Positions 2,597 to 63,435 of a DNA stretch of 64,000 nt are shown one piece after another. A program made the translations under genes and the position numbers. Below the pieces are notes generated by a model. The model did not search any database. It saw only the letters and a program-made list of their open reading frames with translations, and had not been told where the DNA came from. The stretch is taken from assembly GCA_000992445.2 (NCBI GenBank), contig LBUF02000011.1, positions 35,556 through 99,555 of the forward strand, in the 5' to 3' direction. Within the stretch, counting starts at the first letter, position 1. Every line of letters starts with the position of its first letter. This DNA is from Parcubacteria group bacterium GW2011_GWA2_38_13b. Its GTDB lineage: Bacteria > Patescibacteriota > Minisyncoccia > GWA2-38-13b.

Positions 2597-2973
2597 TATA
2601 ATAAACCCCTGCTTTTTAATTCTTCGTAAAGTTCGTCAATTAACGTATCGTGCAATTCGTCTAAAATATAAGCGTTGTCTATTTTTTTTGCCATAGCAAC
2701 AGCATAATGCACGCCTTTTTCCATTGCCAAATCGGCAAGTATTTTTATCTGTCTTCGTCTCGCGGTTCCCTTGGTTGCCGCAGTTTGTTCTTTTATCTGT
2801 TTCGTCGAGGAACCATTAACGGGTTTCGTTTTTGACAAGTCATTTTTTTTCTTAATCGCGGGAATCGGTTCCTGCTCTTTTCCAATGATTTTTTGTTCTA
2901 AAGATAATTTTTCATCAATTTTTTTCTGTTCTCCCTCTTTTGATTTTTGTATTTTTTCCGAAATGATATCCAT
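2596..2973 (-). CDS. Hypothetical K/E-rich 125-aa protein
   Basis: ORF abuts the murD start and has no overlapping competitor with better coding character. No motif recognised. Confidence 0.45.
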   Translation of the reverse strand: MDIISEKIQKSKEGEQKKIDEKLSLEQKIIGKEQEPIPAIKKKNDLSKTKPVNGSSTKQIKEQTAATKGTARRRQIKILADLAMEKGVHYAVAMAKKIDNAYILDELHDTLIDELYEELKSRGLL

Positions 2974-3059
2974 ATTTTATATGTTACTTTAATGAATTAA
3001 ACCAATCAATGATATTATAACAAATTTATAAGTTATGATACAATACGGATATAAAAACT

Positions 3060-4982
3060 ATGAAATATAAAATAAGTATTATTGTCGTAATTTTATTTTT
3101 AGCAATGACTTTTCTCGCCATTGCCAGCGTTTGGAACGATTCCGCTATTATGGATGAAGCGAGCCATATTCCGGCCGGATATTCTTATATAGTTAAAAAA
3201 GATATGCGGATAAACCCGGAACATCCGCCGTTAGTAAAGGATTTGGCGGGAATTTCCGCGTTAATTTACTCAAAAATCAGCAACGACAAAATAAATTTTA
3301 ATGATGCGAGCCGCTTTTGGCAAAATGAGATAAACAGCCAATGGTCATTCGGTTTCAATTTTTTATATGACATCGGCAATAACGCCGATAACATAATTTT
3401 CTGGTCCCGCATTCCGTCAATTTTAATAATGCTTATTTTGGGTTTTTATATTTTCAAATGGGCGCGCGAACTTTACGGCCCAAAAGCAGGGCTTGTCGCT
3501 CTTTTTCTTTACGCGTTGTCCCCTACCGTTTTAACGCACGGACGGTTCGTGACGACGGATGTATCGGCCGCCGCGGGAATTTTCATCGCGACTTATTATT
3601 TTATCAAAGCGCTGCGAAATCCGTCTAAAAAAAATATTATTATTTCCGGAATTGTTTTGGGTATCGCGCTACTCCTGAAATTTTCCACATTTTTATTAAT
3701 CCCGTTTTTTGTTCTGTTAATCGTTATTTTTACAATAAGCCGGATATTAAATTATCCAAATGCTAATAAAATATCTATTGTATGGAAAAACGCCCTTCTT
3801 TTATTGATGATTTTCGTTATCGGGGCCATTATCCTTTATCCGATTTATCAATATCACGTTTGGAATTATCCCATCGCGCCAGCAACTCAAGAAGCAAGAA
3901 ATACTATTTTGCAAATTGATAATTGCGCAAACTTGAATTTGGAAAAATATCCCGTCAGCCAATTTCGCGATACGGTTTGCATTCTAAAAACCTACGGCAA
4001 TCGCCCGCTCGTCAATTTTGTGACATGGATGTCCGATAAACCGATTTTACGAAGTTACGGTCAATATCTGCTGGGCTTAATGATGGTCAACCAAAGAACG
4101 CTTGGCGGCAATACGACTTATTTTCTGGGACAAGTTTCAAATCTTGGCTGGCACTCTTATTTCCCGATTGTTTATCTTATAAAAGAACCGCTAACTTTGC
4201 ATATTTTAACGTTCATAGCGTTGATTTTCGCTTTAATAAAATTAGCAGTTTACAAGTGGAGAAGCTGGCGTTACGCGTTTAATTTCTGTTTGGCGGCAAT
4301 GTTTAAAAATCGCCTGCGAGAATTTTCCGAATTTATTCCCAAAAATATAGCGCAAATCGCAATGCTGATTTTTATAGTAATATACTGGACAATATCTGTC
4401 CGTAGCCGGTTGAATATCGGTATCCGCCATATTCTGCCGACAATTCCATTTGTCTACGTTTTAATTAGCGGCAATACGATAAACTTAATTGAAAAAATAA
4501 AAGACCGGAAAATATATTTTCTACTTTCTATTTTCTACTTTCTACTTTTTGGCTGGTATTTATACGCCAATTTATCCGCATTTCCCCACTACCTCGCCTA
4601 TTTTAATGAAACGGCTGGCGGATCGAAAAATGGCTATAAATATGTCGTTGACTCCAATTTGGATTGGGGACAGGATTTAAAACGATTAGCAATATGGGTA
4701 AATAAAAACAATGTAAATAAAATTAAACTTGACTATTTCGGCGGCGGCAATCCAAAATACTATTTGGGCGATAAATTTGAGCCGTGGCGGGGTTCACGGC
4801 CGGAAAACGAAGCATTGGGGGGCTGGCTCGCCGTATCCGCGACATTTTTGCAAGGCGGACGGGGAAATTCCGCGCCGGGATTCAAAGAACAAACCGATTA
4901 TTATAAATGGCTAAATAAATACACGCCCGCGACCGTCATCGGTCATTCGATATTTGTTTATAATTTGACAAATGCAAGATAA
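3060..4982 (+). CDS. GT-C fold membrane glycosyltransferase (family 39/83, ArnT/PMT-like)
   Basis: 640 aa with many TM segments. N-terminal loop has DEASH...EHPPL, as in the PMT_2/ArnT family. Confidence 0.7.
   Translation: MKYKISIIVVILFLAMTFLAIASVWNDSAIMDEASHIPAGYSYIVKKDMRINPEHPPLVKDLAGISALIYSKISNDKINFNDASRFWQNEINSQWSFGFNFLYDIGNNADNIIFWSRIPSILIMLILGFYIFKWARELYGPKAGLVALFLYALSPTVLTHGRFVTTDVSAAAGIFIATYYFIKALRNPSKKNIIISGIVLGIALLLKFSTFLLIPFFVLLIVIFTISRILNYPNANKISIVWKNALLLLMIFVIGAIILYPIYQYHVWNYPIAPATQEARNTILQIDNCANLNLEKYPVSQFRDTVCILKTYGNRPLVNFVTWMSDKPILRSYGQYLLGLMMVNQRTLGGNTTYFLGQVSNLGWHSYFPIVYLIKEPLTLHILTFIALIFALIKLAVYKWRSWRYAFNFCLAAMFKNRLREFSEFIPKNIAQIAMLIFIVIYWTISVRSRLNIGIRHILPTIPFVYVLISGNTINLIEKIKDRKIYFLLSIFYFLLFGWYLYANLSAFPHYLAYFNETAGGSKNGYKYVVDSNLDWGQDLKRLAIWVNKNNVNKIKLDYFGGGNPKYYLGDKFEPWRGSRPENEALGGWLAVSATFLQGGRGNSAPGFKEQTDYYKWLNKYTPATVIGHSIFVYNLTNAR
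4517..4550 (+). repeat. Tandem 14-nt (2 x 7) repeat TTTTCTACTTTCTA x2.4 inside the GT39 gene
   Basis: Read directly from the sequence. It encodes YFLLSIFYFLLF. Confidence 0.8.
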
Positions 4983-5054
4983 AAGAGTATAATTATACTG
5001 TAAATTTACGGTCTGTGTTTTTTAAAAATTTTTATACTGGAAAAGGAGAAGGAT

Positions 5055-5159
5055 ATGAATATTAACTGGATCATAGATAACCAACCTATGATAATAATTC
5101 TGACTTTTTATTTCGTTTTGATGGTATTATCAATATTATTGAAAATATGCACAAGATGA
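5055..5159 (+). CDS. Possible 34-aa hydrophobic peptide, or N-terminal stump of a gene cut by the IS
   Basis: Strong SD (AAAAGGAGAAGG) lies 4 nt before the ATG. Translation is MNINWIIDNQPMIIILTFYFVLMVLSILLKICTR. The TGA stop directly abuts the IS inverted repeat. Confidence 0.3.
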   Translation: MNINWIIDNQPMIIILTFYFVLMVLSILLKICTR

Positions 5160-5875
5160 GATACATAGGTAACACCTTGAAAATCAAGAAATATGGCAAA
5201 TAAAAGGTGGATTCAAGATGAAGCCGTGTATTATGATAGAACGATAATCAATAAAATATACGGTTCAGGTTTTCATTTGACGAATGACCTGCTGCCGCTC
5301 TATCATATGGCTTCATATTTCAATAAATACGCTAATTTATCCCGGCAAGCCAAACAAAGAATTAAATGGTTTGATTATTACCGTAAGCGCAAGAACGCGT
5401 CTTTGACCTGCCGTTGTTTCGGCATATCAAGAAAAACATTCCATAAGTGGAAAAACAGAATTGATTCTTTTTCCAAAGTCGCTTTCGCCAGAATGTATAA
5501 AAACGCCAACTCGTATAACGCTTCCGATTTTTTAAACAGGTTAATGTATCTGGTGAATGGAAACATTGATAATATCCAAACGGATAATGGATCTGAATTT
5601 GGAAAATACTTTAATCAAGCTTGCGTGAAATTAAAGCTTGGAAGATATTATTCCCGCGTCAGAACCCCGAAAGACAATCCGGTGAATGAAAGATTCAACA
5701 GAACCATACAATGCGAGTTTATTAATCTTGGTAATTTTACTCCCGATGTTGTAAAATTCAACAGAAACGTTACTGAATGGTTAATCGAATACAACTTTAA
5801 CAGGCCGCATGAATCTTTAAACTATGAAACGCCCATTAACTTTAACAATTCTGCGAAAGTGTTACCTATGTACCC
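5160..5875 (+). mobile_element. Internally deleted IS remnant (rve/DDE transposase type, IS481/IS3-like)
   Basis: Terminal inverted repeats GATACATAGGTAACAC (5160-5175) and GTGTTACCTATGTAC (5859-5873), with a 14-bp perfect core, bracket a truncated transposase ORF. The exact ends are uncertain. Confidence 0.6.
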
Positions 5876-5921
5876 GTCTGGTATAGCAAAAAATAAAAGA
5901 GGCTTAACCGCCTCTTTTTAA
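5193..5921 (+). pseudogene. Truncated DDE (rve) transposase
   Basis: N-terminal HTH (CFGISRKTFHKWKNR) runs straight into the distal catalytic core (IQTDNGSEF...NERFNRTIQCEF...NRPHESL). The first catalytic-Asp region is missing, and the ORF is 242 aa. Confidence 0.65.
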
Positions 5922-5927
5922 TTTTTG
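5896..5927 (+). terminator. Rho-independent terminator between the convergent tnp remnant and ftsQ
   Basis: AAAGAGGC-ttaacc-GCCTCTTT hairpin followed by a T-run. Confidence 0.6.
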
Positions 5928-5965
5928 TATCAGTTTTATTTTTCAAGTTTAAGATTTCGCGTCCA

Positions 5966-6868
5966 TCATCTGTAATAAACCCTATCCGGTATTCTTAAAT
6001 CAATGTACTCCAAATTTTTCCTTTCGGAAACGGTTATTTTTTTTTCCAAAACTTTTTCCAAAATTTCCATTTGATTTTCTATGTTTGCGTCTCTATCCAA
6101 GTAAATTTTCCAATTTTCGGAAGTTAAAATTTCCAAATCCGGCAATTTAAGATTTTTTATAAAAAACTTTATAATTTTAAGATTTTTCGTGTTGAAAGAT
6201 TTCTGAACAGACATAATGGATGCAATGATTCCATTATTTAATATTTTATCTCCTATTTTCACGTCTTTATCGTAAATTTCATCGATTCGTAAAATTAGCG
6301 ATCCGAACGATTGTGGCGCTTTGCTGAAAATTATTCCCGTATCGTCAATGTAATAACATCTGTCCGTTGGAATAAACTCCTCGGCAATTTCAATGTCTTT
6401 AATCGTCAATAAATCTCCGCTAACTTCGTTTATAATCGCTTCGTTTATATCTTTGTCCTGTTTGCGGATAACTGCTTTGCACCAAATCGCGAAAATTTCC
6501 CTTTCTTTAATCGCAATTTCTATTTTATGAAAATATTTTTTCGCAACTGACACTTCCCCTATCAATACATATTTATCTAAAATTTTTTGGGAAATTTCTT
6601 TTGATTTCGCTAAAATTATATTTCGCGGACGCCAAAAAAACAAAAAACGGCGGTTTAAATACTCGTCGACCGTTTGATCGATGTTTTTTTCGGAAATATT
6701 TTTATTGCCGTTTATAGCTATTTGATTTATTTGAAAAACCGGTGAAATAAAAAAAAGATAGAAAAAGCCGCCGCCGGCAAAAATCATTAATGCCAAAAAA
6801 AACTTCATTTTCAATGAAACTCGCGTTAGTTGCGTCGCGTATTTTTTTCGTTGATGATATATAATCAT
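5966..6868 (-). CDS. ftsQ: Cell division protein FtsQ/DivIB-like (TM + POTRA)
   Basis: Single N-terminal TM followed by a POTRA-like segment (INQIAINGNKNISEKNI). It overlaps alr by 4 nt. Confidence 0.6.
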   Translation of the reverse strand: MIIYHQRKKYATQLTRVSLKMKFFLALMIFAGGGFFYLFFISPVFQINQIAINGNKNISEKNIDQTVDEYLNRRFLFFWRPRNIILAKSKEISQKILDKYVLIGEVSVAKKYFHKIEIAIKEREIFAIWCKAVIRKQDKDINEAIINEVSGDLLTIKDIEIAEEFIPTDRCYYIDDTGIIFSKAPQSFGSLILRIDEIYDKDVKIGDKILNNGIIASIMSVQKSFNTKNLKIIKFFIKNLKLPDLEILTSENWKIYLDRDANIENQMEILEKVLEKKITVSERKNLEYIDLRIPDRVYYR

Positions 6869-7977
6869 AAATGTATTCTTGATACCAGCGGGTTAATTCT
6901 TGCCGTAATTTCATAATTGATTGTGCCACAATATTCGGCTATTTCTTCTACGGTTATTTCTTCTCGATCCTGTTTACCGAGCAATACCGCTTCATCGCCT
7001 ATTCGCGCATTTGGAATGTCTGTCACATCAACCATTGTCATATTCATACAAACTCTGCCTAAAATCTTGCATCGTTTGCCGTGAATCAAAACCTCGCCTA
7101 TTTTTGATAACCTTCTGTCGTAACCGTCCCAATAGCCAACTGGCAAGATAGCGATTTTTGTTTTTCGTTTCGTTATTTCCGCGCATCCATAACCTATGCA
7201 ATTTTCTTTTTCGGAATGTTTGAGTTGAATTATTCTCGTCTTCCATAACATCGCAGATCTCAATTCTATTTTTACACCAAGTTTTTCAGCCGTTATTTTT
7301 GCTTTTGATGACGGCCAAAGTCCGTAAATTCCTAGTCCTATCCTTACCGTGTTAAAACGAGATTCCTGAATAGTCAAAGCGGACGCGGTGGAAGCGATAT
7401 GTTTTATTTGCGGATATAATCCGTTGTTGTTGCATATTTTTATCGCTAATTTGAACTTTTCCAACTGCGATTTTACCGACTTTTCATTATCGCTATCGGC
7501 AAAATGAGAAAAAATTCCGATAATTTCAATATTTTTATACGTTTTAACGGATTTTAAAAATCGCGGCAAATCTTTAAGCGCAATCCCCAGCCGATTCAAA
7601 CCTGTTTCCATCTTAATGTGGATTTTCACTTTATCCGAACACGCCGCGCCCAACGCTTTAACGGTTTCAAAATCATAAACCGTTAAATGACAATTTAATT
7701 TTATTGCTTTTGGCAAATCATTGGCAAAAACATACCCTAATATCAAAATCGGTTTCGTTATTTTATTTTTCCGTAAAATTTCCGCTTCTTCCAAGGAAAA
7801 AACGCCGAGCATATCGGCGCCGTTTTTTTCAACTATCTTTGACACTTCAACGATGCCATATCCATAAGCGTTGGCTTTAACAATGGCTATAAAACAAACA
7901 TCTTTTTCCAGCAAAGACTTTATTGATTTTATATTGTGAACTATGTTTTCCTTGTTGATTTCAAGCCAAGATGCCAT
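6865..7977 (-). CDS. alr: Alanine racemase
   Basis: PLP-lysine motif AIVKANAYGYG. Length is 370 aa. Confidence 0.9.
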   Translation of the reverse strand: MASWLEINKENIVHNIKSIKSLLEKDVCFIAIVKANAYGYGIVEVSKIVEKNGADMLGVFSLEEAEILRKNKITKPILILGYVFANDLPKAIKLNCHLTVYDFETVKALGAACSDKVKIHIKMETGLNRLGIALKDLPRFLKSVKTYKNIEIIGIFSHFADSDNEKSVKSQLEKFKLAIKICNNNGLYPQIKHIASTASALTIQESRFNTVRIGLGIYGLWPSSKAKITAEKLGVKIELRSAMLWKTRIIQLKHSEKENCIGYGCAEITKRKTKIAILPVGYWDGYDRRLSKIGEVLIHGKRCKILGRVCMNMTMVDVTDIPNARIGDEAVLLGKQDREEITVEEIAEYCGTINYEITARINPLVSRIHL

Positions 7978-13461: not shown

Positions 13462-13915
13462 ACCAATAAGACAAAAAAATTATAATAATAAGATTAAATG
13501 CCAGAGCCGTAAAAAATGTATTATTAAAAAAAATGATTAAATCATTGCGGGCGATTATTCGATAATCGGCAAACTGCGCCGCAATTTCAACGCAACCCCA
13601 GATTAAAAATTCATAAAATAATAAAACTATAAATAAATTTATAAACAAACTTTTAAAATTTAAACTAAAAATCCGCTGCAAAAATAAAAATAACAAAACA
13701 GAAAAAATCAAACTTACCGTTAAAATTCCGGGGGGCAAGGCGGAAATGCGATCGAAAATCAATCCGACTGCCAATATTAACGAAAGAAAATAATTAACCG
13801 GCAAAATAAAACTTGCAGCCAGGGAAGCCATTAAAACAACTTCTGCGCCGGCAGGCAAAACCGCCACTTTAAACCAAATCAAAATTAACAATAAAAAGGG
13901 TAAAAAATATTTCAC
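13421..13915 (-). CDS. mreD: Rod shape-determining protein MreD; start revised to the GTG at 13915
   Basis: Polytopic small membrane protein after mreC. The GTG is preceded by CTTCTAACGGG, the same context seen at four other GTG starts in this window. The ORF-track ATG at 13954 would add 13 aa. Confidence 0.65.
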   Translation of the reverse strand: MKYFLPFLLLILIWFKVAVLPAGAEVVLMASLAASFILPVNYFLSLILAVGLIFDRISALPPGILTVSLIFSVLLFLFLQRIFSLNFKSLFINLFIVLLFYEFLIWGCVEIAAQFADYRIIARNDLIIFFNNTFFTALAFNLIIIIFLSYWFGKRKVYEYFVKI

Positions 13916-14024
13916 CCCGTTAGAAGTCTGTATTGCGCTGTTTGCCGTTGCCATAAAAATATAATAATGTTTTACGCATTTTCCCCGTTAATGCCGCGCA
14001 TAAAAATTTCCGACGGGGTTCGTG

Positions 14025-18263: not shown

Positions 18264-18611
18264 CTATATAGTTGTTGTAAACTTTTGACCGCATTTTTTA
18301 CAAGTGAAATCAATAGAAACAACATTCCCTTTTTTGTCTTTTTGCATTTCATTGGTTAAATATTCATTACATAATATATGCCGTCTTTTATTAGCTTCAA
18401 AAACTACATCACCGGCATTCTGGGCCTCTTCTATGGTTGGCACATATTTCTTAAATCCCAATGATTTTACCGATTCAAAATGTTTTTTTTCTCCGGCATG
18501 TTTGGCGCAATCTTCTTGATTCCCATTGAATTTGCATCCTCCATTCCCGCATTTAAAGAATTCTTTCTCATATTTTTTGGTTATTTTCGGTTCCGTTTCT
18601 TTGATATTCAT
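18264..18611 (-). CDS. Cys/His-rich 115-aa hypothetical protein inside the dnaK operon
   Basis: CGNGGC...C..H.....H near the N-terminus and CKKC near the C-terminus. It is co-oriented between dnaK and dnaJ. Confidence 0.55.
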   Translation of the reverse strand: MNIKETEPKITKKYEKEFFKCGNGGCKFNGNQEDCAKHAGEKKHFESVKSLGFKKYVPTIEEAQNAGDVVFEANKRRHILCNEYLTNEMQKDKKGNVVSIDFTCKKCGQKFTTTI

Positions 18612-20617: not shown

Positions 20618-21097
20618 TTATTTTGATATCCGCACTTTTGCGGCTCTTATAACTTTCCCGTTCAAAGTATAACCTTTCCTCAATTCTTCCAATATCATTC
20701 CCGATTCCTTTTCCGATTCAACGGCCTCAACGGCTTCATGAAATTCCGGATTAAATTTCTCACTGATCGTCTTTATTTCCTGAACCCCGTGATTTTTTAA
20801 AATCCCCCCCAATTGCGTTTTTATCGCCACGATGCCCTGAATCCACCTTGACTGATTTTCGTTTTCCGGTAAATGCTTAACGGCTTCGTCAAAATTGTCA
20901 ATAATCGGCAAAAATTCAAGAACGAAATCTTCACGTGCATATTTTCTAAACATCACTATCGCTTCCTCTTGACGTTTTTTATAATTGATAAAATCCGCTT
21001 TGGCGCGTTTCCAACCATTCAAATATTCATTGGCTTGCGTTTGCCAATCTATTTTACCAACATTGTCGCCATTTTGCTTTGGTTCATCTTGATTCAC
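20618..21097 (-). CDS. grpE: Nucleotide exchange factor GrpE (GTG start)
   Basis: 159 aa GrpE-like dimerisation helix and beta domain. It sits between hrcA and dnaK. Confidence 0.85.
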   Translation of the reverse strand: MNQDEPKQNGDNVGKIDWQTQANEYLNGWKRAKADFINYKKRQEEAIVMFRKYAREDFVLEFLPIIDNFDEAVKHLPENENQSRWIQGIVAIKTQLGGILKNHGVQEIKTISEKFNPEFHEAVEAVESEKESGMILEELRKGYTLNGKVIRAAKVRISK

Positions 21098-21229
21098 CCC
21101 GTTAAATATCTACCCTTATATAATTTAACATAACTTCAGATAGATATTTTATTATAATGCAACCTTCGTTAGTTTAGTGCGGAAAAATTTTAAAAAAATT
21201 TTCCGCCATAGACCTCTAACGGGGTTCAT
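21098..21229 (-). promoter_or_regulatory. grpE leader element (hairpin + CTAACGrGG boxes)
   Basis: Hairpin GCGGAAAA..TTTTCCGC at 21179-21206 and an ACTAACGAAGG box. CCCCGTTAG at 21216-24 (includes the hrcA stop) is complementary to the TAACGGGG at the grpE GTG. Confidence 0.45.
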
Positions 21230-21911
21230 TATTGCATGATAATATTTTTACCAATTCATTTATAAGCGCTATATTCCTATCATACCTCATTCTTGTCGGA
21301 CCTAAAAGCGCTATTATTCCTTGTTTTTTTGACGAAATATTGTAAGAAGAAATAATCATACTGCACTTTTCCAAGAGCAATGGATTTTCTTTGTCTATAT
21401 AAACAACGGTACCGTTATCGGAAACGCTATCAATGATTTTATCGGTATAATCATAAATATTTTCCAGCTTATTTACCAAATTTTGCAAAATCTCCAAATT
21501 ATTATAAAATTCCGGTTCTCCCAATAAAACATCCAATCCCGCGTTAAGCAAATTGTCATCAATAAAATTTATAACAAGCGAGCTTGAATACTCGGCAATA
21601 TATTTCAAACATTCGCGGGGAAAAGACATAAATTCATTGAATACTTGAGGCAATTTTATTTTATGCTCCTTTTCGCGGTCAATTGAATCAACAAACATCT
21701 TATAAGCTTTTGTCGTAGGGATTCTGCCGCCGGAAGTATACAATTGCGCCAAATAACCATTTTTTGTCAGCCACGCCATTTCCATTCTGATAGTCGCGGG
21801 ACTCGCGGAAATATCATATTTTTCATAAATCAAATTCGATCCCACCGGTATGGAATTTTCAATATGCTCATCGATAACGGAAAATAAAATTTGTTGTCGG
21901 CGAGAATTCAT
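21216..21911 (-). CDS. hrcA: Heat-inducible repressor HrcA (short form); start revised to the ATG at 21911
   Basis: N-terminal wHTH (MNSRRQQILFSVIDEHIENSIPVGS) and a C-terminal GPTRMRY motif. The longer ORF-track start would place the CIRCE operator inside the CDS. Confidence 0.8.
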   Translation of the reverse strand: MNSRRQQILFSVIDEHIENSIPVGSNLIYEKYDISASPATIRMEMAWLTKNGYLAQLYTSGGRIPTTKAYKMFVDSIDREKEHKIKLPQVFNEFMSFPRECLKYIAEYSSSLVINFIDDNLLNAGLDVLLGEPEFYNNLEILQNLVNKLENIYDYTDKIIDSVSDNGTVVYIDKENPLLLEKCSMIISSYNISSKKQGIIALLGPTRMRYDRNIALINELVKILSCNNEPR

Positions 21912-21931
21912 AGTATACCTCATCTTATCAA

Positions 21932-21958
21932 TTAGCACTCTCTTGTCAAGAGTGCTAA
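21932..21958 (-). promoter_or_regulatory. CIRCE operator (HrcA binding site)
   Basis: Perfect match to the consensus TTAGCACTC-N9-GAGTGCTAA, 21 nt upstream of the hrcA ATG. Confidence 0.92.
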
Positions 21959-22056
21959 AATAATCAATTTCCAGATGCAAGTCTTTACTTTATTGATATT
22001 TTTGTGTACATTGTAATTATGCTTAATAAATAAAATAATAACATTAAATAATACCT

Positions 22057-22305
22057 ATGAAAAAGAAAATTCATCCTAAATATTTTCCTAAAGCCAAGGT
22101 TCAATGCGCCTGCGGCAATTCTTTTATAGCTGGATCAACTAAGGAAAAAATAGAAACAGAAATCTGTAGCGCTTGCCATCCGTTTTATAGCGGCAAAGAC
22201 AAGCTCATTGATACGGCTGGAATTGTCGATAAATTTAAAAAACGAATGGAAAAAACCAAAGTACTCAAAAAAGCGGCGACGGAAAGAAAAGAAACGAAAA
22301 AATAG
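22057..22305 (+). CDS. rpmE: Ribosomal protein L31
   Basis: MKKKIHPKY...CACG...[10 protein letters not shown] zinc-type L31. Confidence 0.93.
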
Positions 22306-22321
22306 CATAAATTCTTATGTT

Positions 22322-22366
22322 AAGAGTAATCGCCGGTTATTTTCGTATCCGCGGTTGCTCTTTTTC
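22322..22366 (+). terminator. Probable rpmE intrinsic terminator
   Basis: About 12-bp stem AAGAGTAATCGC / GCGGTTGCTCTT (two G-U pairs) followed by TTTTTCTT. Confidence 0.5.
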
Positions 22367-22390
22367 TTATGAGCCCCGCCAGATATCCTC

Positions 22391-22504
22391 GGCAGAAAAA
22401 TTTCATTGAAATTTTTCTGCGTGGAACTAACAAGGATTACATATTTTAATTTTGGTCTGCCCGAAATTAACCAATTGGTTATATAGGAGCAGACTTTTAA
22501 CGGG
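22391..22504 (+). promoter_or_regulatory. prfA leader element (homologous to the rpsU and grpE leaders)
   Basis: Perfect 12-bp hairpin GCAGAAAAATTT/AAATTTTTCTGC, a GAACTAACAAGG box, a TATATA box and AGACTTTTAACGGG running into the GTG start. Confidence 0.5.
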
Positions 22505-23554
22505 GTGAACAAAGAAATACTGAAAAAAATAAAAGAAGCCCGTGAAAATTATGAACAGATAAATAAACAACTTAGCGATCCTAAGATTGTTTCCGATTTC
22601 CAAAAAGTCAAAGAATTAACCCAAGAACATTCCAGGCTAAAAGAAGTCGTTGGCGCTTTTGAAGAAATTGAGAAAATTGAAAAAAAAATAAAAGAAGCGG
22701 AAAATATTATCGGTTCCGAAACAGATCCGGAATTAACTGAATTGGCCGACGAAGAAATAAAAGAACTGACGGTAAAAAAAGAAAATTTATCGGCAAAGAT
22801 TGAAAATTTTTTCTCGCCGAAAAAAGACGCGGAAAACAATATAATAATGGAAATCCGCGCCGGAACTGGTGGCGAAGAAGCGGCGATTTTTGCGGTTGAA
22901 ATTTTCAGAATGTATTCGCGTTACGCCGAAAAACGCCAATGGAAACTAAATATAATTGATTCCAGTCAAAGCGAACTAGGAGGATACAAAACGATTATTT
23001 TTGAAATAAAAGGTGGCGGAGTTTATGAAGAAATGAAATTTGAATCTGGCGTTCACCGCGTTCAACGGGTTCCGGAAACGGAAAAAAACGGTCGAGTCCA
23101 CACTTCAACGGCAACAGTCGCCGTTTTGCCCCAAGCAAAAGAAATTGACGTGCAGATAAATCCACAGGATATTGAAGTAACAACCGCGAGAGCCGGCGGT
23201 CCAGGCGGTCAAAACGTCAATAAAGTGGAAACGGCGGTCAGGATTACCCACAAACCGACGGGTATCGCGATTTTAAGCCGCGCCGAGAGAAACCAACAGC
23301 AAAATCGGGAAAAAGCGATGATGATTTTGCGGTCAAAACTACTGGATCTCAAAAAACAAGAAGAGGATAAAAAAAGGACATCCGAACGAAAATCGCAAAT
23401 CGGTTCCGCCGACCGATCGGAAAAAATAAGAACCTATAACTTCCCGCAAGACAGAATAACCGACCATAGAATAAAAAAAACCTGGCACAATATTCCGAAA
23501 ATAATGGACGGCGACTTGGGACAAATTATCAATGAACTGAAAAACACGATATAA
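22505..23554 (+). CDS. prfA: Peptide chain release factor 1 (GTG start)
   Basis: GGQ motif ([11 protein letters not shown]). The PxT-type tripeptide (VPETE) indicates RF1 rather than RF2. Confidence 0.93.
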
Positions 23555-25821: not shown

Positions 25822-26550
25822 CTATTTTTCTCCTTTCTTTTTATTATTCGCCGTATCTTTTACGCCGCCCTTATTATCTTTCGCTTCCGTTTCTTCCTTG
25901 CTTTCCTTATTTTCTTTGCCAACCACTTTAATATCTCCGACTAAACCCGTTGGAGCGCCTCCCAATTCTTCTTTTATTTCTTCTTCCGTCTTTGGTTTTT
26001 TCACCGTTACCACGACAATTTCCGGATCCTGGGCAAGAGTAACGTTTTCTGGAAGCACAATGTCTTTTACCTTAATAACATCGCCAAAGTTTCCTAATAA
26101 ACTGATATCAATTTTTATTTCACGAGGCACATTGATAGGCAAAACTTCAATTTCTATGCTATCCAAATGCTTATCCATAATACCTCCGTCATTCTTTACG
26201 AGCAAAGAATCGCCCGTAAAAACAAGGGGTACCATTATTTTAATCTTTTTATCCATTCTTATCGCATATAAATCAATATGAATAATCTTGTCAGTAACGC
26301 CATCCTTAACGACATCTTGAATCAACACGTTATCATTTTTAAGTTTTCTATCCGAAATATTTAATTTAATAATCGTATTTTGACCAGCTTTTTCATAAAT
26401 ATTGCCAAATTCGTTATAATTTATTTCAATTGGCGTATTTTCCGTATTAAAACCATAAAATATACCGGGTATTTTGCCGGATTTTCGCAAATCGCCAAGA
26501 TTCTTGCCGATATTTTTTCTAATTGTCGCATTAAGCGTTAAATTATTCAC
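25822..26550 (-). CDS. rplY: Ribosomal protein L25/Ctc with a K/E-rich tail (GTG start)
   Basis: NNLTLNATIRKNIGK...GKIPGIFYG matches the L25 N-terminus. Confidence 0.88.
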   Translation of the reverse strand: MNNLTLNATIRKNIGKNLGDLRKSGKIPGIFYGFNTENTPIEINYNEFGNIYEKAGQNTIIKLNISDRKLKNDNVLIQDVVKDGVTDKIIHIDLYAIRMDKKIKIMVPLVFTGDSLLVKNDGGIMDKHLDSIEIEVLPINVPREIKIDISLLGNFGDVIKVKDIVLPENVTLAQDPEIVVVTVKKPKTEEEIKEELGGAPTGLVGDIKVVGKENKESKEETEAKDNKGGVKDTANNKKKGEK

Positions 26551-26691
26551 CCCGTTAGAAGTTTATCTTTATATGACCGATGTCAACTTTAGATAGACAT
26601 ATATTTACAACTTGACCCTTATTGGTTCATAATCAATAATCTATCACAAATTATTTATAAATACAAGTGCGGCGCGCTATCGATAGACAAG

Positions 26692-27747: not shown

Positions 27748-28989
27748 TTACGGTAAAAAAATTTTAAACCAACGTTTTATTTTATTAACGGCATTGCCCG
27801 AAGAAGATTGGCCATATCCCTTACCGCTCAATTCAGCATCAATCCCCCATAAAACAAGACCGACCGCCGTTGCAAAAACAGGATCATCCATTTTATCCGC
27901 CAATCCGTCAAATTCAGCCGGAAAACCGATTTGTGCGGGCAACTTCAATTCTTTTTTAACCAAATCAATAAAACCCGGTATCTTTGCTCCACCGCCGATT
28001 ATTACAACACCGGCCGGCAAAAGCCGATTACGATCAATTTTCTTCAACTCCAGGGTGGTTAAATCCAAAATTTCCAAAACCCTAGCTTCTATTATACTGG
28101 CAACTTCCTTACGGGGGATAAGATCTTCTTCGCCAAAACCGAATTTAGCCAAATCAATCACGTCATTTTTGTAAATTTCCTCCGGAAGACAAGAACCGTA
28201 TTCAATTTTAACTTTTTCGGCTATATCAATCGCGGTGCGCAATCCGATCGCCAAATCATTCGTAATATGCGCAGCGCCTACCGGTAAAATATTTATATGC
28301 CTGAGGTCTCCTTCTTCGTAAATGCACAATGACGAAGTCCCTCCTCCGACATCCAAACAAAGCACGCCGAGATCTTTTTGTCTTTTATTCAAAACGGCGC
28401 GACTTGCGGCCAAAATATCCAACACCAAAGCATCAATATTGATCCCCGATTCATTTACGCATTTCACTAAATTTTTAATAAACGGCGTTGAACCGTCTAT
28501 AATCAAGCTGTCCACTTCCAATCTTACGCCGTGCATTCCAATCGGATTTTTAATCCCCGTTTCGCTGTCAACGGTAAACACGCGAGGAATAATATGAATA
28601 ATCTCGCGATTAAGCGGCAATGATATGGCTTCGGAAGCGGAAATGACGCGCTCAACGTCTTCGTTGGAAATTTCGCCATCCGGACGAGAAACGGCAATGA
28701 CTCCCTTGCTTGCCATCGCTTTTATATGAGTACCGCCTATGCTTATGTAGGCATGATCTATTTTTATACCGGATATTCTTTCCGCTTCCGCTATTGATTT
28801 TTTGATACTTGAAATCGCATCATTTATATCCACAACTACTCCCTTGCGTAAACCGAAAGAAGGCGCCATACCGACACCCATAACCTGCGGCTTGATTGTT
28901 TCCCGGCTCGCATCAACTTTTACCACAACCGTATTGACAGTGCTGGTGCCGATGTCCAATCCTACGAAAATATCTTTATTGAATTTCAC
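27748..28989 (-). CDS. ftsA: Cell division protein FtsA (GTG start)
   Basis: Actin-fold motifs GLDIGTST and DVGGGTSSL. Length is 413 aa. Confidence 0.9.
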   Translation of the reverse strand: MKFNKDIFVGLDIGTSTVNTVVVKVDASRETIKPQVMGVGMAPSFGLRKGVVVDINDAISSIKKSIAEAERISGIKIDHAYISIGGTHIKAMASKGVIAVSRPDGEISNEDVERVISASEAISLPLNREIIHIIPRVFTVDSETGIKNPIGMHGVRLEVDSLIIDGSTPFIKNLVKCVNESGINIDALVLDILAASRAVLNKRQKDLGVLCLDVGGGTSSLCIYEEGDLRHINILPVGAAHITNDLAIGLRTAIDIAEKVKIEYGSCLPEEIYKNDVIDLAKFGFGEEDLIPRKEVASIIEARVLEILDLTTLELKKIDRNRLLPAGVVIIGGGAKIPGFIDLVKKELKLPAQIGFPAEFDGLADKMDDPVFATAVGLVLWGIDAELSGKGYGQSSSGNAVNKIKRWFKIFLP

Positions 28990-29948: not shown

Positions 29949-30438
29949 GTTTCTTTTTCAAAATATCGCCGACCAATTTTCCGTCTGCCACTCCCTTGAG
30001 TTGCGCCATTATAATCCCCATAGTTATTCCGAAATCACGCGCTCCCCGAACATCAATTCGTCGGCTGGCAGACAAAATTTTATCAATTTCAGCATTAATT
30101 TCCGGCTCAGATAGTTGTTTTGGCAAATATTTCTCCAATATATCCAGCTCTTCCTTTTCATTCAGCTCCAAATCACGCCTTCCTCCGCGACCAAAAACAT
30201 CGATTGATTCTTTTCTTTTTTTGGCTTCGCGAATCAAAACCTCCAAAACCTCGCTGTCATTAAGCAGGATTGACTCGTTTAATTGTTGCGGTTTTTTATT
30301 TTTACCGGAATGATATCTCTTTTCCAATTCCTTATTTTTTACAGCCGCGAACAATAAACGCAAAACGGAAACAATTTTACTATTTTTATTCTTTAACGCG
30401 GATTTAAAATCCCGCTGTATAATTTCGTATAAAGTCAT
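29938..30438 (-). CDS. yqeY: GatB/YqeY domain protein
   Basis: 166 aa with YqeY-like repeats. Its position directly after rpsU matches Firmicutes-type gene order. Confidence 0.75.
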   Translation of the reverse strand: MTLYEIIQRDFKSALKNKNSKIVSVLRLLFAAVKNKELEKRYHSGKNKKPQQLNESILLNDSEVLEVLIREAKKRKESIDVFGRGGRRDLELNEKEELDILEKYLPKQLSEPEINAEIDKILSASRRIDVRGARDFGITMGIIMAQLKGVADGKLVGDILKKKLED

Positions 30439-30650
30439 ATTTTACCCAACCTCTTGAGTTCTTCGTACTCTTGACGGCGTTTTACGCGCGCAAGAGCCGA
30501 TTTCCTCATTATTCTTTTAGTCAACGGCTGCTCTCTATGCTTGCGTCTTTTCGCTTCTTGTAAAACTCCGGCGCGATGAATTTGCTGGGAAAAACGACGC
30601 ACTAAAGCTCCAGCAGTTTCATTTGGTTTTTTTGTAATTTTTATTTTCAC
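30435..30650 (-). CDS. rpsU: Ribosomal protein S21 (GTG start)
   Basis: 71 aa, basic, with ALVRRFSQ...RRKHREQP, typical of S21. Confidence 0.88.
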   Translation of the reverse strand: MKIKITKKPNETAGALVRRFSQQIHRAGVLQEAKRRKHREQPLTKRIMRKSALARVKRRQEYEELKRLGKI

Positions 30651-30803
30651 TCCGTTAGAAGTTTGTCTTTACCCCGTTGGAAACACCGTTTCTAACGGGA
30701 TTTGCATAACCAAACGGTTAATTTCAGACAAACTTAAATTAAAAGACATAAACCTCGTTAGTCCGGAGCAGAAAAATTTTCTTCAAAGAAAATTTTTTCG
30801 CGC
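30651..30803 (-). promoter_or_regulatory. rpsU leader element (homologous to the prfA leader, with an extra hairpin)
   Basis: Hairpin at 30768-30803, GACTAACGAGG box, GAAATTAACCGTTTGGTTAT, an extra CCCGTTAGAAAC/GTTTCCAACGGG hairpin, and CTTCTAACGGA running into the GTG start. Confidence 0.5.
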
Positions 30804-30835
30804 AAGACTTTAAACAGGGTTCTTGATTCAAAAAT

Positions 30836-34585: not shown

Positions 34586-36757
34586 CTAAACCAATCTTAA
34601 CGATAACACGCGCGACACCCCTTCGTCCATAGTCACGCCATAAAGAATATCGGCTAATTTCATTGTTTCACGATTGTGTGTGATTAAAATAAATTGTGTT
34701 TTTCGAGAAAGTTCCCGCAATATTTTCCCGAATTTTTGCGAATTATCTTCGTCAAGCGCCGCGTCTATTTCGTCCAAAACCAAAAAAGGAGGCGAAGCGG
34801 AAGCGATTATGGCAAACAACAAAGCAATGGATGTAAGCGATCTTTCTCCGCCGGAAAATAAACTCAAATCCTTGATTTTTTTGCCGGGCAATATAGCGCT
34901 GATATCCACTCCTTCGCGATTTATATTATCGTTTTCCTTATCGTTTCCGCCAGTTTCGTCATTATCGCCGTCAACCTGGTTTACGGCTGTTTTCCGCAAA
35001 AGCGAAGCCCGGCCACCGCCAAAAATAAGCCGGAAATAATTATTGAATTCATTGTTAATTACGGAAAAATAATCATTAAAATTTTCACGGATTTTTCTCT
35101 CCAATTCATCTATGACATTTTTAAGCGATGAAATGGTTTTTTTAAGATCTCCCGATTCCTTTTCCAAAAATTGATAACGCTGATCGGTTTCATGAAATTC
35201 CTGAATTGTCGCCTGATCTATGCTACCGATTTCATCGAGCCGAACTTTCAATCGTCTAATTTCTCTTTCCGAATCATCCTGATTAAACAATTCCGGAATT
35301 TTAATATCAGCCGCGATGATTTCCTGAATATTCATACCGGAATCCGCAATTTCTTTTTCAATATCGCCCAATTTCATAGAAACTTTCGCTTCTTCTATAT
35401 CCAAATCGCGCAAAACGTCTTTATCTCCGCCAATTTCGTCTTCAATGGCTTTTATCCGCCTTTCCATTTCAAAAAATTTCGCTTTCTCTTTTAATTCTTG
35501 ACCCTGCCTATTGGCAATGTTTGCCTGAATTTCACGCGACTCCGAAGATAATTTCGCGATTTTATCTTCCAACTCTTTTTTTTCTTCCAAAAGACCGGGG
35601 TTAACTTCCGGTTTTTTCAAATATTTTTTAATTTTGCCGTTTTTGATTTCATTATGCAAACAATCAAGCATTTCCAAACCCTCATTTAATATTTTATTTT
35701 TTTCGCCGGCATTTTGCGAATTCAACGCTTTTTTCAATAATTCCAACGATTGGGAAATCCGCGTTTTTATGTAATCAATATCGACCGGGGACACTTGCGG
35801 TTCACGCGCTATCAATATTAATTCAATTTTAGCTTCTATTTTCGCCGTCTCTTTTTCCATCTCTCCGATTTTCATCCGCAAATCATTCCATTTTTGCTGA
35901 AGACCGAAAATGCCGTTATCTCCGCTAAACATATTTTTTTCTTCCTTGCTTAAATTTTTTTTCAATTCGATCAACTCTTGCGATTTGCGAAATATTTCAT
36001 CTCTGGCAGATTTATTTCTTCGATTTATTTGATTTTTTTCTTTATACAAATTTTTTGAAATAACGCCAAAATAACTTTTTTGAATATCGCCGAGTTTTTT
36101 GACAATTTCCTCTCTTTTTTCGGCCTTGCTTGCTTGTTTTCTTAAATAATTCAAATGAGGTTCGATTTCCGCCATCAATGACGCCGTCTTTTCCAAATTA
36201 TCTTTGGTATTTTTTATTTTGCGCGCAGCCTCTTCTTTTTTTACTTGGTACCCCCTGACACCGGCCGCCTCTTCCAGAATAAGTTGTCTTTCCGTAGGAG
36301 AGTAATTCAATATCGCATCGGCCATACCCTGATTTATAATAGAAAAAGATTTTTGCGCCATACGGGCTTTGGTTAAAATATCCGCCACATCTTTAAGCCG
36401 CACCTTTGAATTATTGATGTGATATTCATTCTCTCCCGCACGAAAAATATTACGGCTGATAACCACTTCCGGAAAATCAATCGGCGCCGCTCCGCTGGAA
36501 TTGTCCATAAACAAAGCAACCCGAGCCTTGCCGAGACGAACTCTTTTTTTAGATCCGGAGAATATCAAATCTTCGCCCTTCTTTCCCCTTACGCTTTTCA
36601 TACTCTGCTCACCCATAACCCATTTAATGGCATCAACTATGTTTGACTTGCCGCATCCGTTGGGACCGACAATAGCCGTAATGCCGCCGGCAAAATCCAA
36701 AATCGTCTTTTGGGCGAAAGATTTGAATCCGGAAATTTCAAGACGTTTTAAATGCAT
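34586..36757 (-). CDS. smc: SMC-family chromosome segregation ATPase, unusually short (723 aa)
   Basis: N-terminal head LEISGFKSF...GPNGCGKSN, a C-terminal signature LFSGGERSL and Walker B LVLDEIDAALD. A coiled coil lies between them, with no recognisable hinge. Confidence 0.85.
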   Translation of the reverse strand: MHLKRLEISGFKSFAQKTILDFAGGITAIVGPNGCGKSNIVDAIKWVMGEQSMKSVRGKKGEDLIFSGSKKRVRLGKARVALFMDNSSGAAPIDFPEVVISRNIFRAGENEYHINNSKVRLKDVADILTKARMAQKSFSIINQGMADAILNYSPTERQLILEEAAGVRGYQVKKEEAARKIKNTKDNLEKTASLMAEIEPHLNYLRKQASKAEKREEIVKKLGDIQKSYFGVISKNLYKEKNQINRRNKSARDEIFRKSQELIELKKNLSKEEKNMFSGDNGIFGLQQKWNDLRMKIGEMEKETAKIEAKIELILIAREPQVSPVDIDYIKTRISQSLELLKKALNSQNAGEKNKILNEGLEMLDCLHNEIKNGKIKKYLKKPEVNPGLLEEKKELEDKIAKLSSESREIQANIANRQGQELKEKAKFFEMERRIKAIEDEIGGDKDVLRDLDIEEAKVSMKLGDIEKEIADSGMNIQEIIAADIKIPELFNQDDSEREIRRLKVRLDEIGSIDQATIQEFHETDQRYQFLEKESGDLKKTISSLKNVIDELERKIRENFNDYFSVINNEFNNYFRLIFGGGRASLLRKTAVNQVDGDNDETGGNDKENDNINREGVDISAILPGKKIKDLSLFSGGERSLTSIALLFAIIASASPPFLVLDEIDAALDEDNSQKFGKILRELSRKTQFILITHNRETMKLADILYGVTMDEGVSRVLSLRLV

Positions 36758-50095: not shown

Positions 50096-50181
50096 CCCCC
50101 ATTAGAAATTAAAAATTTGCGCTGTCATAATAAATTTATATTTTAAATCCCCGTAATTAATCTATGAAATTTCTAACGGGG
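50096..50181 (-). promoter_or_regulatory. Long hairpin in the rpoB-rpoC spacer built from the CCCCGTTAGAAATT motif
   Basis: On the minus-strand RNA, CCCCGUUAGAAAUU...AAUUUCUAAUGGGG forms 14 bp, with the single difference giving a G-U pair. The loop is 57 nt. Confidence 0.55.
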
Positions 50182-63380: not shown

Positions 63381-63435
63381 CCCAATCCTATCATTATTAT
63401 TTTATTTATTCAACCCAGTTAGAAATTTCAAAAAA

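Follow-up and report, generated by a model that had tools for sequence, protein, structure and literature searches.

The block of sequence that precedes prfA, rpsU and grpE in our window, a 64,000-nucleotide stretch of a Parcubacteria group genome, is very probably a copy of a MITE-like mobile repeat, about 130 bp long and non-coding. The family is common in groundwater Parcubacteria and is a mobile repeat rather than a dedicated regulatory RNA. The initial annotation had read the block as a single structured leader shared by the three genes, and much of what it described is indeed there: the upstream regions are homologous (70% mean column identity), the A/T hairpin and the CTAAC(G/A)A(A)GG, GTCT(G/A), TATATA and TAACGG(G/A)GTG boxes all lie where it placed them, with the GTG as the start of the ORF, the closing pairs of the hairpin differ in a compensatory manner between prfA (GCAG/CTGC) and grpE (GCGG/CCGC), and rpsU carries one inserted hairpin of 28 nt. 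The 3-nt difference between prfA and grpE in the distance from hairpin to GTG also holds, but the distances themselves are about 84 and 81 nt rather than 87 and 84 nt. Two other descriptions have to be revised. The window contains not three but at least six copies (at prfA, rpsU, grpE, rplY, which encodes L25, and two further sites), and the unit does not open at the A/T hairpin: its left edge lies about 18 nt 5' of it, at a CCCCG(T/C)(T/C)AG box that repeats the final CTAACGGGG box in inverted orientation.

The blocks in the window are insertions of 76-170 bp bounded by terminal inverted repeats and 4-bp target-site duplications (Table 1). Across the family, the terminal inverted repeats measure 14-16 bp (CCCCGTTAGAAGTC ... 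GACTTCTAACGGGG; in short form CCCCGTTAGAAGT...ACTTCTAACGGGG) and enclose two inner hairpins together with an internal repeat of the end motif. The commonest size is 120-139 bp, shorter and nested forms span 28 to about 170 bp, and TGAA is the usual duplication. In an alignment of 42 copies, 98.5% of the cells of the 14-bp end helix are paired, and TATATAA is at least 90% conserved at a fixed position 19 nt 5' of the GTG. Tested for the features by which MITEs are recognized, the family is shorter than about 300 bp and non-coding, it has terminal inverted repeats and a duplication of fixed length, it is polymorphic for presence and absence, and its copies are dispersed, nested and in tandem. 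The old ATG frame meets stops within the window copies; at prfA, reading of the sequence places the stop inside the element.

Table 1. Copies of the repeat in the window and parts of the prfA copy (positions of the window; E values are those of the covariance model).
Feature	Position	Strand	Details
prfA copy, 132 bp	22374..22505	+	ends in G (22505), with which the GTG start begins
Remnant of old prfA ATG (22369-22371) and left duplication TGAG	22369..22373	+
Hairpin 1, GCAGAAAAATTT-cattg-AAATTTTTCTGC	22392..22420	+	12-bp helix; double changes in 7/12 pairs (42 copies)
Internal box CTAACAAGG (family consensus ATAACGGGG)	22427..22435	+	second, inner copy of the right-end motif; alignment columns 58-66
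Hairpin 2, GTCTG...CAGAC, inner AACC/GGTT	22455..22494	+	helices 3 and 4; double changes in 7/8 pairs
TATATA of prfA copy	22480-22485	+	19 nt before GTG
Right 4-bp duplication TGAA	22506..22509	+	new GTG start at 22505-22507
grpE copy, 128 bp	21097..21224	-	old ATG 21229-21227; TGAA duplication 21228-21225 and 21096-21093
rpsU copy, 170 bp	30650..30819	-	left repeat decayed (CCCTGTTTAAAGTC); flanks AGAA and TGAA; E = 1e-13, outside seed
28-bp mini-element (two end repeats and loop)	30672..30699	-	nested in rpsU copy at TAAA of TATATAAAGAC
rplY (L25/Ctc) copy	26550..26625	-	5'-truncated, without left repeat or hairpin 1; old ATG 26630-26628; TGAA on both flanks; E = 2e-9
104-bp variant	13915..14018	-	ends on GTG of a membrane-protein ORF; flanks CGAA and TGAA; E = 1e-4
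85-bp copy, away from any start codon	50097..50181	-	duplication TAAA (TTTA on + strand); E = 1e-5

A covariance model seeded with the window's prfA and grpE copies and 40 copies from metagenomes picks up each of the six copies in the window and has no match in the relatives whose sites are empty. The two seed members score 97.7 bits (prfA, alignable with 41 other copies) and 101 bits (grpE), and the model check suggested with the original leader proposal did find copies outside the seed, at rpsU, L25 and the two remaining sites. The rplY product has the Pfam domains Ribosomal_L25p and TL5_C. Run on L002-L013 and L015, the model gave no match, and on L014 a marginal one only (E = 0.05). Independently of the model, TAACGGRGTG with at most one mismatch occurs 13 times in the window versus 3.7 +/- 1.7 times in shuffled sequence, where none of 100 shuffles reached 13. 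The five exact occurrences all place the GTG in frame with an ORF, as its first listed start in four; the exception, at 13915, has an ATG in the same frame 13 codons upstream. No tRNA or tmRNA gene was found in the window.

Comparison with relatives yielded four pairs of filled and empty sites. A relative of 90% identity, L001, has an empty site at grpE, where hrcA overlaps the ATG start of the gene (AATAATGAA[128 bp]TGAATCAAGAT in the window versus AACAATGGACGAAGAT in L001); in the window, the hrcA stop codon TAG (21218-21216) falls within the grpE copy. The prfA site lacks the insertion in an 86%-identity relative (...ttcttATGAATAAG...) and also in one of 70% identity. It is filled in the window, L001 and L137 and empty in L138 (ATGAATAAGGAA) and L139, the empty L138 site reading ...ctctttttcttATGAATAAGGAA versus ...ctctttttcttATGAG[132 bp]TGAACAAAGAA in the window. 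The left duplication TGAG at prfA is a decayed TGAA, and both L137 and L001 retain ATGAA at the position of this decayed flank. The copy at 50097-50181 is missing from the orthologous L001 site, and an L001 copy at 7210-7290 is missing from the window. Parts of the element also come and go: hairpin 1 and the mini-hairpin vary in presence between strains at the same locus, and the mini-element nested in the rpsU copy recurs within the prfA copy of both L001 and L137 but not in that of the window. As a separate observation, L001 carries a 1.35-kb extra segment between hrcA and rpmE with a 388-aa ORF that, judged by sequence, resembles a secreted serine protease; the segment contains no sign of a transposase.

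The family extends well beyond these genomes. The exact right-end 19-mer ARACTTCTAACGGGGTGAA matches at least 120 metagenome contigs, with hosts given by the source names as Nealsonbacteria, Staskawiczbacteria and Paceibacterota, and about 110 nt upstream of the 19-mer are common to the matches listed. Among these matches, 81 copies measure 120-139 bp, 18 measure 100-119 bp and 14 measure 60-79 bp; nested and tandem copies occur, as do in-frame copies in pilin genes (L083 and L024). TGAA or TTCA lies just outside 244 of 320 ends among the matches listed, where the base preceding the left-flank TGAA is A in 76 cases, G in 21, T in two and C in none. The 4 bp to the left and to the right agree exactly in 43 of 52 and in 7 of 10 copies among the matches listed, including TTGA/TTGA and TTCA/TTCA pairs, and a wider set adds TAAA/TTTA and TCAA duplications. 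Orientation is near-uniform, with the TATATAA arm adjoining the gene. Reading from the GTG gives an ORF of 80 or more codons in 79 of the 113 testable copies among the matches listed, compared with 0 and 3 for the other two frames, and several copies without such an ORF start short ribosomal protein genes (L36, L35, L29, L28). The share of start codons in this sample is inflated because the retrieval pattern includes GGGGTGAA: in a less biased set, 10 of 47 copies (about 21%) sit on a GTG start, and an equal number carry a TGAA or TTCA duplication. For comparison, the window has 58 TGAA sites in non-coding DNA, of which about 11 are start codons.

How does this distribution bear on a leader that regulates gene expression? 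Such a leader, thermometer-like or a protein-binding 5' UTR, would co-regulate the translation and stress genes prfA, rpsU, grpE and rplY, with the upstream CCCCGUUAG box pairing with the start-codon CUAACGGGG box to gate translation. The structure behind this proposal is real and covarying. Double changes occur in 15 of 34 pairs across the 42 copies, a number reached in none of 500 shuffles, and RNAs from the window form much more stable folds than shuffled sequences do (z = -5.6 and -3.8). The end repeats are able to sequester the start region, and the four named window genes are all related to translation or stress. The covariation upholds the initial annotation in its description of a lineage-specific, structured, shared block, while the empty orthologous sites and the unrelated genes speak against its dedicated cis-regulatory RNA. 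The block is missing at the orthologous grpE and prfA sites of close relatives, it is bounded by inverted repeats and 4-bp duplications, hairpin 1 and the mini-hairpin are gained and lost at one locus, and the same block stands at sites other than starts and ahead of about 90 unrelated genes among the matches listed. These downstream genes are very diverse and include those for ribosomal proteins as well as ssb, groES, clpP, metK, murB/C, topA, pyrG and tpiA. Departures from pairing are about equally G-U (33) and A-C (27), so that the folding strand is undefined and no RNA strand is favored. A pairing of the outer arms restricted to the antisense strand, which G-U pairs in the prfA copy had suggested, was dropped because of this family-wide equality. 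Known structured leaders (ribosomal protein leaders, ROSE/fourU thermometers and T-boxes) likewise lie directly 5' of translation or stress genes and can pair the start with an upstream box, but the block studied here is not conserved at orthologous sites, precedes unrelated genes, bears the hallmarks of insertion and has no match in Rfam. The last point agrees with the earlier failure to recognize a known RNA family: at the gathering score Rfam gave 0 matches over the whole window, and an E-value scan of 20900-22700 found no family, the best sub-threshold score being 20 bits against a cut-off of 92. The regulon-leader reading is largely refuted, and we consider a dedicated RNA leader very improbable. 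Nevertheless, the covariation of the internal hairpins exceeds the constraint expected of a plain selfish MITE.

Two other kinds of DNA element were weighed. The first would be an element of the single-strand-DNA type, such as IS200/IS605 or REP/RAYT (PATE/REPIN); it would insert 3' of a fixed TGAA and bring TGAA as its own right end, such that the flank would be no true duplication. Like the family described here, REP/REPIN and IS200/IS605-derived palindromes are short intergenic hairpin-forming repeats with compensatory changes; the subterminal hairpins and their equal tolerance of G-T and A-C fit the folding of a DNA strand, and nearly all copies face the same way with respect to the asymmetric TGAA. 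However, these palindromes have neither long terminal inverted repeats nor true duplications, and both are present here: the ends are near-perfect inverted repeats of 14-16 bp, which IS200/IS605 lack, and flanks other than TGAA change together (TTGA/TTGA, TTCA/TTCA, TAAA/TAAA, TCAA), as for a real duplication. Genes for TnpA or RAYT were not seen in the neighborhood of any copy, and we regard this origin as improbable. The second would be a site for site-specific recombination, or the boundary of a cassette, resembling integron attC or Xer/dif; we find this reading the least credible of all. In its favor, the block is an imperfect intergenic palindrome of 60-140 bp, and its GTTAGAA and TTCTAAC are similar to the core (GTTRRRY) and inverse core (RYYYAAC) of attC, but the motif order is the reverse of attC (GTTAGAA 5' and TTCTAAC 3'), the copies have 4-bp duplications and are nested and in tandem, the flanking genes are syntenic core housekeeping genes rather than cassettes, and no integrase gene with attI beside arrays of sites was seen.

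We return to the MITE-like repeat and to the manner in which it enters gene starts. A putative transposase acting in trans inserts the element through a 4-bp staggered cut, with (A/G)TGAA as the preferred target. At a gene starting with ATGAA (Met followed by Lys or Asn), the insertion point lies between A and TGAA, leaving the old ATG dead on the left flank. The genes then start with GTG because insertion between A and TGAA splits the old ATG and the last G of the element plus TGAA makes GTGAA; reading frame and second codon are preserved. The GTG start arises as a side effect of how the element inserts and is no regulatory feature. Since the start codon is rebuilt, the element can occupy the first codon of essential genes (ribosomal proteins, ssb, groES, prfA), a clear case of a mobile-element end and a target duplication together restoring a start codon. 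A non-exhaustive search of the literature on MITEs or motifs of CPR/Parcubacteria found no prior description of an element that does so. This insertion geometry explains a recurrent oddity of Parcubacteria (CPR), namely housekeeping genes that start GTG-AA(N) after ...CTAACGGG. It also carries a warning for annotation, in that an old ATG readable through the element yields false MNPVRS... N-terminal extensions. We had considered whether TAACGGGGTGA might be an extended Shine-Dalgarno sequence with the start further downstream, and rejected this because there is no consistent downstream start and the GTG aligns with Met1 of S21, RF1 and L36 homologues. A CIRCE/HrcA operator was rejected as well, because the motif differs and the spacing of the arms is variable.

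The element might also bring a promoter to the genes it enters. TATATAA in the gene-proximal arm, 19 nt before the GTG, is probably a -10 element that would give a leader of about 12 nt, and this conserved -10-like box suggests promoter donation. A specialized promoter architecture, the other option raised in the initial annotation, may apply, because TATATAA is conserved at a fixed 19 nt before the GTG. No sigma-70 -35/-10 pair was predicted inside the prfA or grpE elements. In transcripts reading through from upstream, the end repeats could pair over 14 bp and bury the start region. At essential genes, only insertions with the TATATAA arm beside the gene would survive. The near-uniform orientation is unexpected for a symmetric DDE insertion and needs either selection or a directional mechanism. 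We tentatively entertain, as a possibility that falls short of even odds, a promoter-carrying MITE with ends shaped to keep the hit gene intact, in which a portable promoter, a short leader and a start codon travel together and the hairpins serve both expression or insulation and transposition. Its machinery would prefer (A/G)TGAA and therefore hit ATGAA starts or, on the other strand, the G|FT codons of prepilin genes, so that a GTG start or an in-frame G-F-T cleavage motif would be rebuilt at the hit gene. If so, the initiation of dozens of housekeeping genes per genome would have been rewired across Parcubacteria. Were TATATAA an active promoter, the repeat would be a movable expression module in very small, regulator-poor genomes and would offer a direct way into the promoters and translation starts of CPR, fields that are almost unstudied.

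Which enzyme might move the element? The CCC termini and the 4-bp T..A duplication lead us to guess, by analogy, at one of the piggyBac/IS1380 type. The repeats of piggyBac begin CCC..., its duplication is TTAA or a variant such as TAAA or TCAA, and among prokaryotes its relative is IS1380 (PMC10813416), a family whose members bear outward-facing promoters (PMC9330008). The present family has CCCC... termini with a 4-bp T..A duplication, a resemblance only, whereas its preferred target is (A/G)TGAA rather than TTAA and the transposase was not found. Within about 0.9 Mb of fetched sequence, no autonomous copy with a transposase inside the same repeats was detected, nor did end repeats paired at distances of 500-4000 bp between equal flanks, solo ends or generic long-range inverted repeats reveal one. 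Candidates among the pairs, in L020 and L065, proved to be ordinary glycosyltransferase, methyltransferase and membrane genes between two separate elements. Viral contigs scanned with TGAACCCCGTTAGAAGT and plasmids searched by blastn with the prfA copy each gave 0 matches. A putative transposase with a 5-bp target preference could have practical interest.

Among known repeats, close parallels include the Correia elements of Neisseria (CREE/NEMIS), which have 26-bp repeats and a TA duplication. They too are MITE-like, about 100-155 bp long and multicopy beside gene starts, and these co-transcribed repeats fold into hairpins and can contribute parts of a promoter; CREE have been described as MITEs with a target resembling a -10 box (PMC9330008). 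The family reported here differs in its repeats of 14-16 bp and its 4-bp duplication, usually TGAA, and has no sequence similarity to Correia elements, which are not known to rebuild a start codon. Rickettsia palindromic elements (RPE) insert in frame within coding regions and are translated. These small palindromic mobile repeats survive in genes because insertion keeps the frame, and their counterparts here are the pilin-gene copies (L083 and L024) and the copies at start codons; RPE are among the subjects covered by a review (PMC3184786). In contrast to RPE, most copies of the present family lie exactly at the first codon and are untranslated, and hosts and sequences are different.

The regions upstream of prfA, rpsU and grpE are as the initial annotation had described them, with a mean column identity of 70% in an alignment of the three, and a fourth gene, encoding L25/Ctc, shares the leader ending. 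With up to one mismatch, this ending, TAACGGRGTG, occurs 13 times in the window against 3.7 expected; its GTG is in frame with an open reading frame (ORF) in all five exact matches and is the first listed start in four; the fifth, at 13915, has an in-frame ATG 13 codons further upstream. The similar blocks begin some 18 nt before the A/T hairpin (hairpin 1), at a box, CCCCG(T/C)(T/C)AG, that was absent from the earlier description. This box is the reverse complement of the terminal CTAACGGGG, so that inverted repeats (end repeats) delimit the unit; short direct repeats flank it at prfA, grpE and L25. Rfam searches with the gathering cut-off and with permissive settings both gave no match.

Window genes with the shared leader ending and boundaries of the copies upstream of them
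Gene product	Position	Strand	Basis and context	Copy boundaries
RF1 (prfA)	22505-23554	+	Pfam	...ttATGAG, then CCCCGCCAG...TTTTAACGGGG, then TGAAC
GrpE	20618-21097	-	Pfam; downstream of HrcA	...aatAATGAA, then CCCCGTTAG...TTTAACGGGG, then TGAAT
S21 (rpsU)	30435-30650	-	Pfam	
L25/Ctc	25822-26550	-	Pfam	...attATGAA, then CC...CTTCTAACGGGG, then TGAAT

The RF1 genome scan yielded a single close relative, the Patescibacteria MAG locus L001 (90% amino-acid identity), and blastn of L001 against the window gave colinear blocks that omit precisely the element. At the grpE site, where L001 1167/1169 corresponds to window 21090/21224, hrcA of L001 reads directly into the ATG start of grpE (AACAATGGACGAAGAT), whereas the window has AATAATGAA, 128 bp and TGAATCAAGAT. 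The window copy at 50097-50181 is absent from L001, and an L001 copy at 7210-7290 is absent from the window. We also checked the prfA site on contigs with closer and more distant RF1 homologues: it is filled, between ATGAA and TGAAC, in L137 (95% identity) and L001, and element-free in L138 (86%; ...gattactctttttcttATGAATAAGGAAATATTA) and L139 (70%; a short spacer). The unit is thus inserted DNA that has inverted repeats at its ends and a 4-bp duplication at its flanks, and the end of the element plus the duplicated bases re-form the start codon, an explanation of the GTG starts that comes directly from the filled and empty sequences. The insertion falls after the first A of ATGAA and duplicates TGAA, leaving the old ATG on the left side, in a frame that soon meets a stop inside the element; on the right side, the last G of the element and the duplicated TGAA form GTGAA, so that both the ORF and the AAN second codon (Lys or Asn) stay unaltered. 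The element is notable for rebuilding start codons and occupying the first codon of essential genes. At 21216-21224 (-), it also supplies the final two codons and stop of hrcA (CCC CGT TAG), and the L001 hrcA ends ...NNGRR* and overlaps the start of grpE; the insertion has therefore uncoupled grpE-dnaK from hrcA.

The prfA copies of the three filled strains vary by entire modules: hairpin 1 without a mini-hairpin in the window, both in L001, and the mini-hairpin without hairpin 1 in L137. The mini-hairpin, a 28-29-bp end-repeat pair inserted at TAAA, is also the extra hairpin that had been noted in the rpsU leader. Mini-elements of 28-36 bp, with little beyond two end repeats and a loop, lie at 13983-14018, 50149-50181 and 30672-30699 (all -); some mini-elements are nested in larger copies with a TAAA duplication of their own, and they suggest that mobilisation needs no more than the end repeats. 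A solitary decayed right end at 63411-63425 (-), TTTCTAACTGGG then TTGA, lies directly after a terminator-like hairpin (GCGGTTGGCAACAGCCGC then a run of T), 45 nt ahead of the following gene, and looks like the relic of an old copy. ORF 27748-28989 (start at 28975-28989, -) begins GTGAAA without an element upstream; this GTG may have arisen by chance, may be a wrongly called start, or may be the scar of a copy that was excised or has decayed. Synteny also breaks between L001 and the window: the L001 prfA region (window ~24252) is joined directly to window ~39956 and then 46339, and between hrcA and rpmE L001 has an extra 1.35-kb segment with a 388-aa ORF that, from its sequence, looks like a secreted serine protease (L001 2016-3182).

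A metagenome scan with the exact 19-mer ARACTTCTAACGGGGTGAA matched at least 120 contigs, where by our own estimate only a handful of matches are expected for a random 19-mer that has a single two-fold position; the matches have ~110 nt of upstream architecture in common, which chance cannot produce. The 120 listed loci total 623 kb (GC 0.30-0.58). Source names of proteins adjoining three copies give Ca. Nealsonbacteria, Ca. Staskawiczbacteria and Ca. Paceibacterota as hosts, and the window strain was found again in a groundwater metagenome. The dominant form reads TGAA, then CCCCGTTAGAAGTCyTnGGCAGAAAAAATT-loop-AATTTTTTCTGC-n-ATAACGGGGTATAAT, continuing A-rich-GTCTGTCTGAAATTAGC-n-GCTATATAAnGACAGACTTCTAACGGGG, then TGAA; the window prfA and grpE copies align with it over their full length, and other subfamilies have only the ~16-nt ends in common with it. 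Among the matches listed, lengths peak at 120-139 bp (81 copies), with smaller classes at 100-119, 60-79 and 20-59 bp and no element in the range 400-4000 bp. Some copies are nested (L L R R) and some stand in tandem with one common TGAA; L041 (697-1041), L050 and L068 carry head-to-tail arrays of 2-3 elements with a single TGAA between them (GGGG TGAA CCCC), as expected if the rebuilt GTGAA again serves as a preferred (A/G)TGAA target. On contig L067, two right ends 2 kb apart (864-882 and 2874-2892) have identical 110-nt upstream sequence and form a 2-kb direct repeat.

TGAA or TTCA lies outside 244 of 320 ends among the matches listed, and the base preceding the left-flank TGAA is A in 76 cases, G in 21, T in 2 and C in none. 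Flanks are identical in 43/52 and 7/10 dominant-type copies, including TTGA/TTGA and TTCA/TTCA pairs, and are therefore true duplications. In 79 of the 113 copies that could be tested, an ORF of at least 80 codons begins at the GTG (other frames, 0 and 3), a share to be read with the caveat that the retrieval pattern included GGGGTGAA; many of the others start short r-protein genes. Of nine downstream proteins checked, seven were already in a public protein collection with exactly the sequence that begins at this GTG; gene callers had therefore picked the same start. A less biased set, the 47 complete copies not matching the retrieval pattern, has duplications of TGAA/TTCA (10), TAAA/TTTA (5), TCAA/TTGA (5) and others, and 10 of the 47 coincide with the GTG at which an ORF of 60 codons or more begins, whereas start codons make up only ~11 of 58 non-coding TGAA sites in the window. 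TGAA-flanked copies are therefore enriched several-fold at starts, and the element as a whole is not restricted to gene starts. The left flanks resemble ordinary gene starts, with stop-codon overlaps, TATAAT-like boxes and a few SD-like boxes. Naive ORF calls from the old ATG run through some subfamilies (L065 6003-7877, also L051 and L056), giving false N-terminal extensions that begin MNPVRS... (45 surplus residues in L065); such artefacts are probably present in public protein sets.

That the hairpin covaries, as had been proposed, is borne out by 42 copies. RNAalifold gave a nearly invariant 14-bp end-repeat stem, hairpin 1 of 12 bp, and hairpin 2 (GTCTG...CAGAC in the prfA copy) of 4 + 4 bp around a conserved internal loop (UGAAAUUA / UAUAUAA). 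Pair counting found 96.2% of cells paired against 41-51% in slid controls, and two-sided changes in 15 pairs against 7.1 +/- 1.6 in shuffles, a value reached by 0 of 500. Window copies also fold well as RNA (z = -5.6 and -3.8). Departures from Watson-Crick pairing are about equally G-U (33) and A-C (27), which does not favour a sense RNA strand; a constraint on the DNA strand, through transposition, fits at least as well as one on RNA. A covariance model of the 42-copy alignment, a check the initial annotation had suggested, recovered all six window copies; it had no match in the empty-site relatives L138 and L139 and found nothing in most more distant Patescibacteria prfA loci, with only marginal hits in L014 (E = 0.05-0.4). 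The downstream genes encode r-proteins (L3, L11, L13, L24, L28, L29, L35, L36, S6, S17) and include ssb (4x), groES, clpP, clpB, metK, murB, murC, nusA, topA, pyrG, tpiA, uppS and genes for RNase H, RNase J, a sigma factor and many membrane proteins; so varied a set is no regulon. The shared leader stands as an observation, and its reading as a regulatory RNA gives way to a mobile element, given the inverted repeats, duplications, empty sites and lack of a regulon. It is widespread in Parcubacteria, with constrained internal hairpins.

The element works in a manner similar to MITEs of the Correia or RPE kind. It has four of the five features that define a MITE; a search of the fetched loci (~0.9 Mb) for the fifth, a cognate autonomous element, found none. 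A Correia element, a REP/REPIN, an IS200/IS605 derivative and an attC site are each rejected, since a defining feature of each was tested for and is lacking. A non-exhaustive literature search on CPR/Parcubacteria MITEs and on sequence motifs found no description of it. Because no copy encodes anything, mobilisation probably occurs in trans. Termini of the CCC... type together with a 4-bp T..A duplication typify piggyBac, which has its prokaryotic relatives in the IS1380 family (PMC10813416), known for outward promoters (PMC9330008), and by this analogy the enzyme may be a DDE transposase; none was found in the fetched loci (~0.9 Mb), the extra L001 segment included.

The conserved TATATAA, fixed 19 nt before the GTG, is a candidate -10 element that would give a ~12-nt leader, a reading we consider evenly balanced. 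The TATATAA arm adjoins the gene in almost all dominant-type copies at gene starts, although ~60% of reversed copies would likewise have matched the search pattern, which supports the promoter reading, as does a TATAAT-like box in the same direction in other subfamilies; that no -35/-10 pair was predicted counts against it. More speculatively, the end repeats might pair in read-through RNA and mask the start region, insulating the gene from upstream transcription. Across the window, a Shine-Dalgarno box is missing from most genes, and in many a TATAAT-like box stands just 5-8 nt ahead of the ATG (e.g. 34586-36757, 45895-46269 and 18264-18611, all -), which suggests that leaderless or near-leaderless mRNAs are widespread in this organism.

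Pilin genes are a second "safe" landing site. A GC-rich 71-bp subfamily lies within the 5' part of type IV pilin-like genes in L083 (ORFs on the minus strand, 652-6664) and L024 (also minus strand, near 1483). These copies are in frame and stand alone, in tandem or nested; counted with the duplication, a unit measures 75 or 147 nt. Read from the opposite strand, the element end and flank (GGG, TTCA, CC) code for G-F-T, which restores the prepilin motif G|FT(L/I)(L/I)E adjoining the mature pilin, e.g. ...ARLLTGFTLLETVVALG; the extension may be removed together with the leader peptide.
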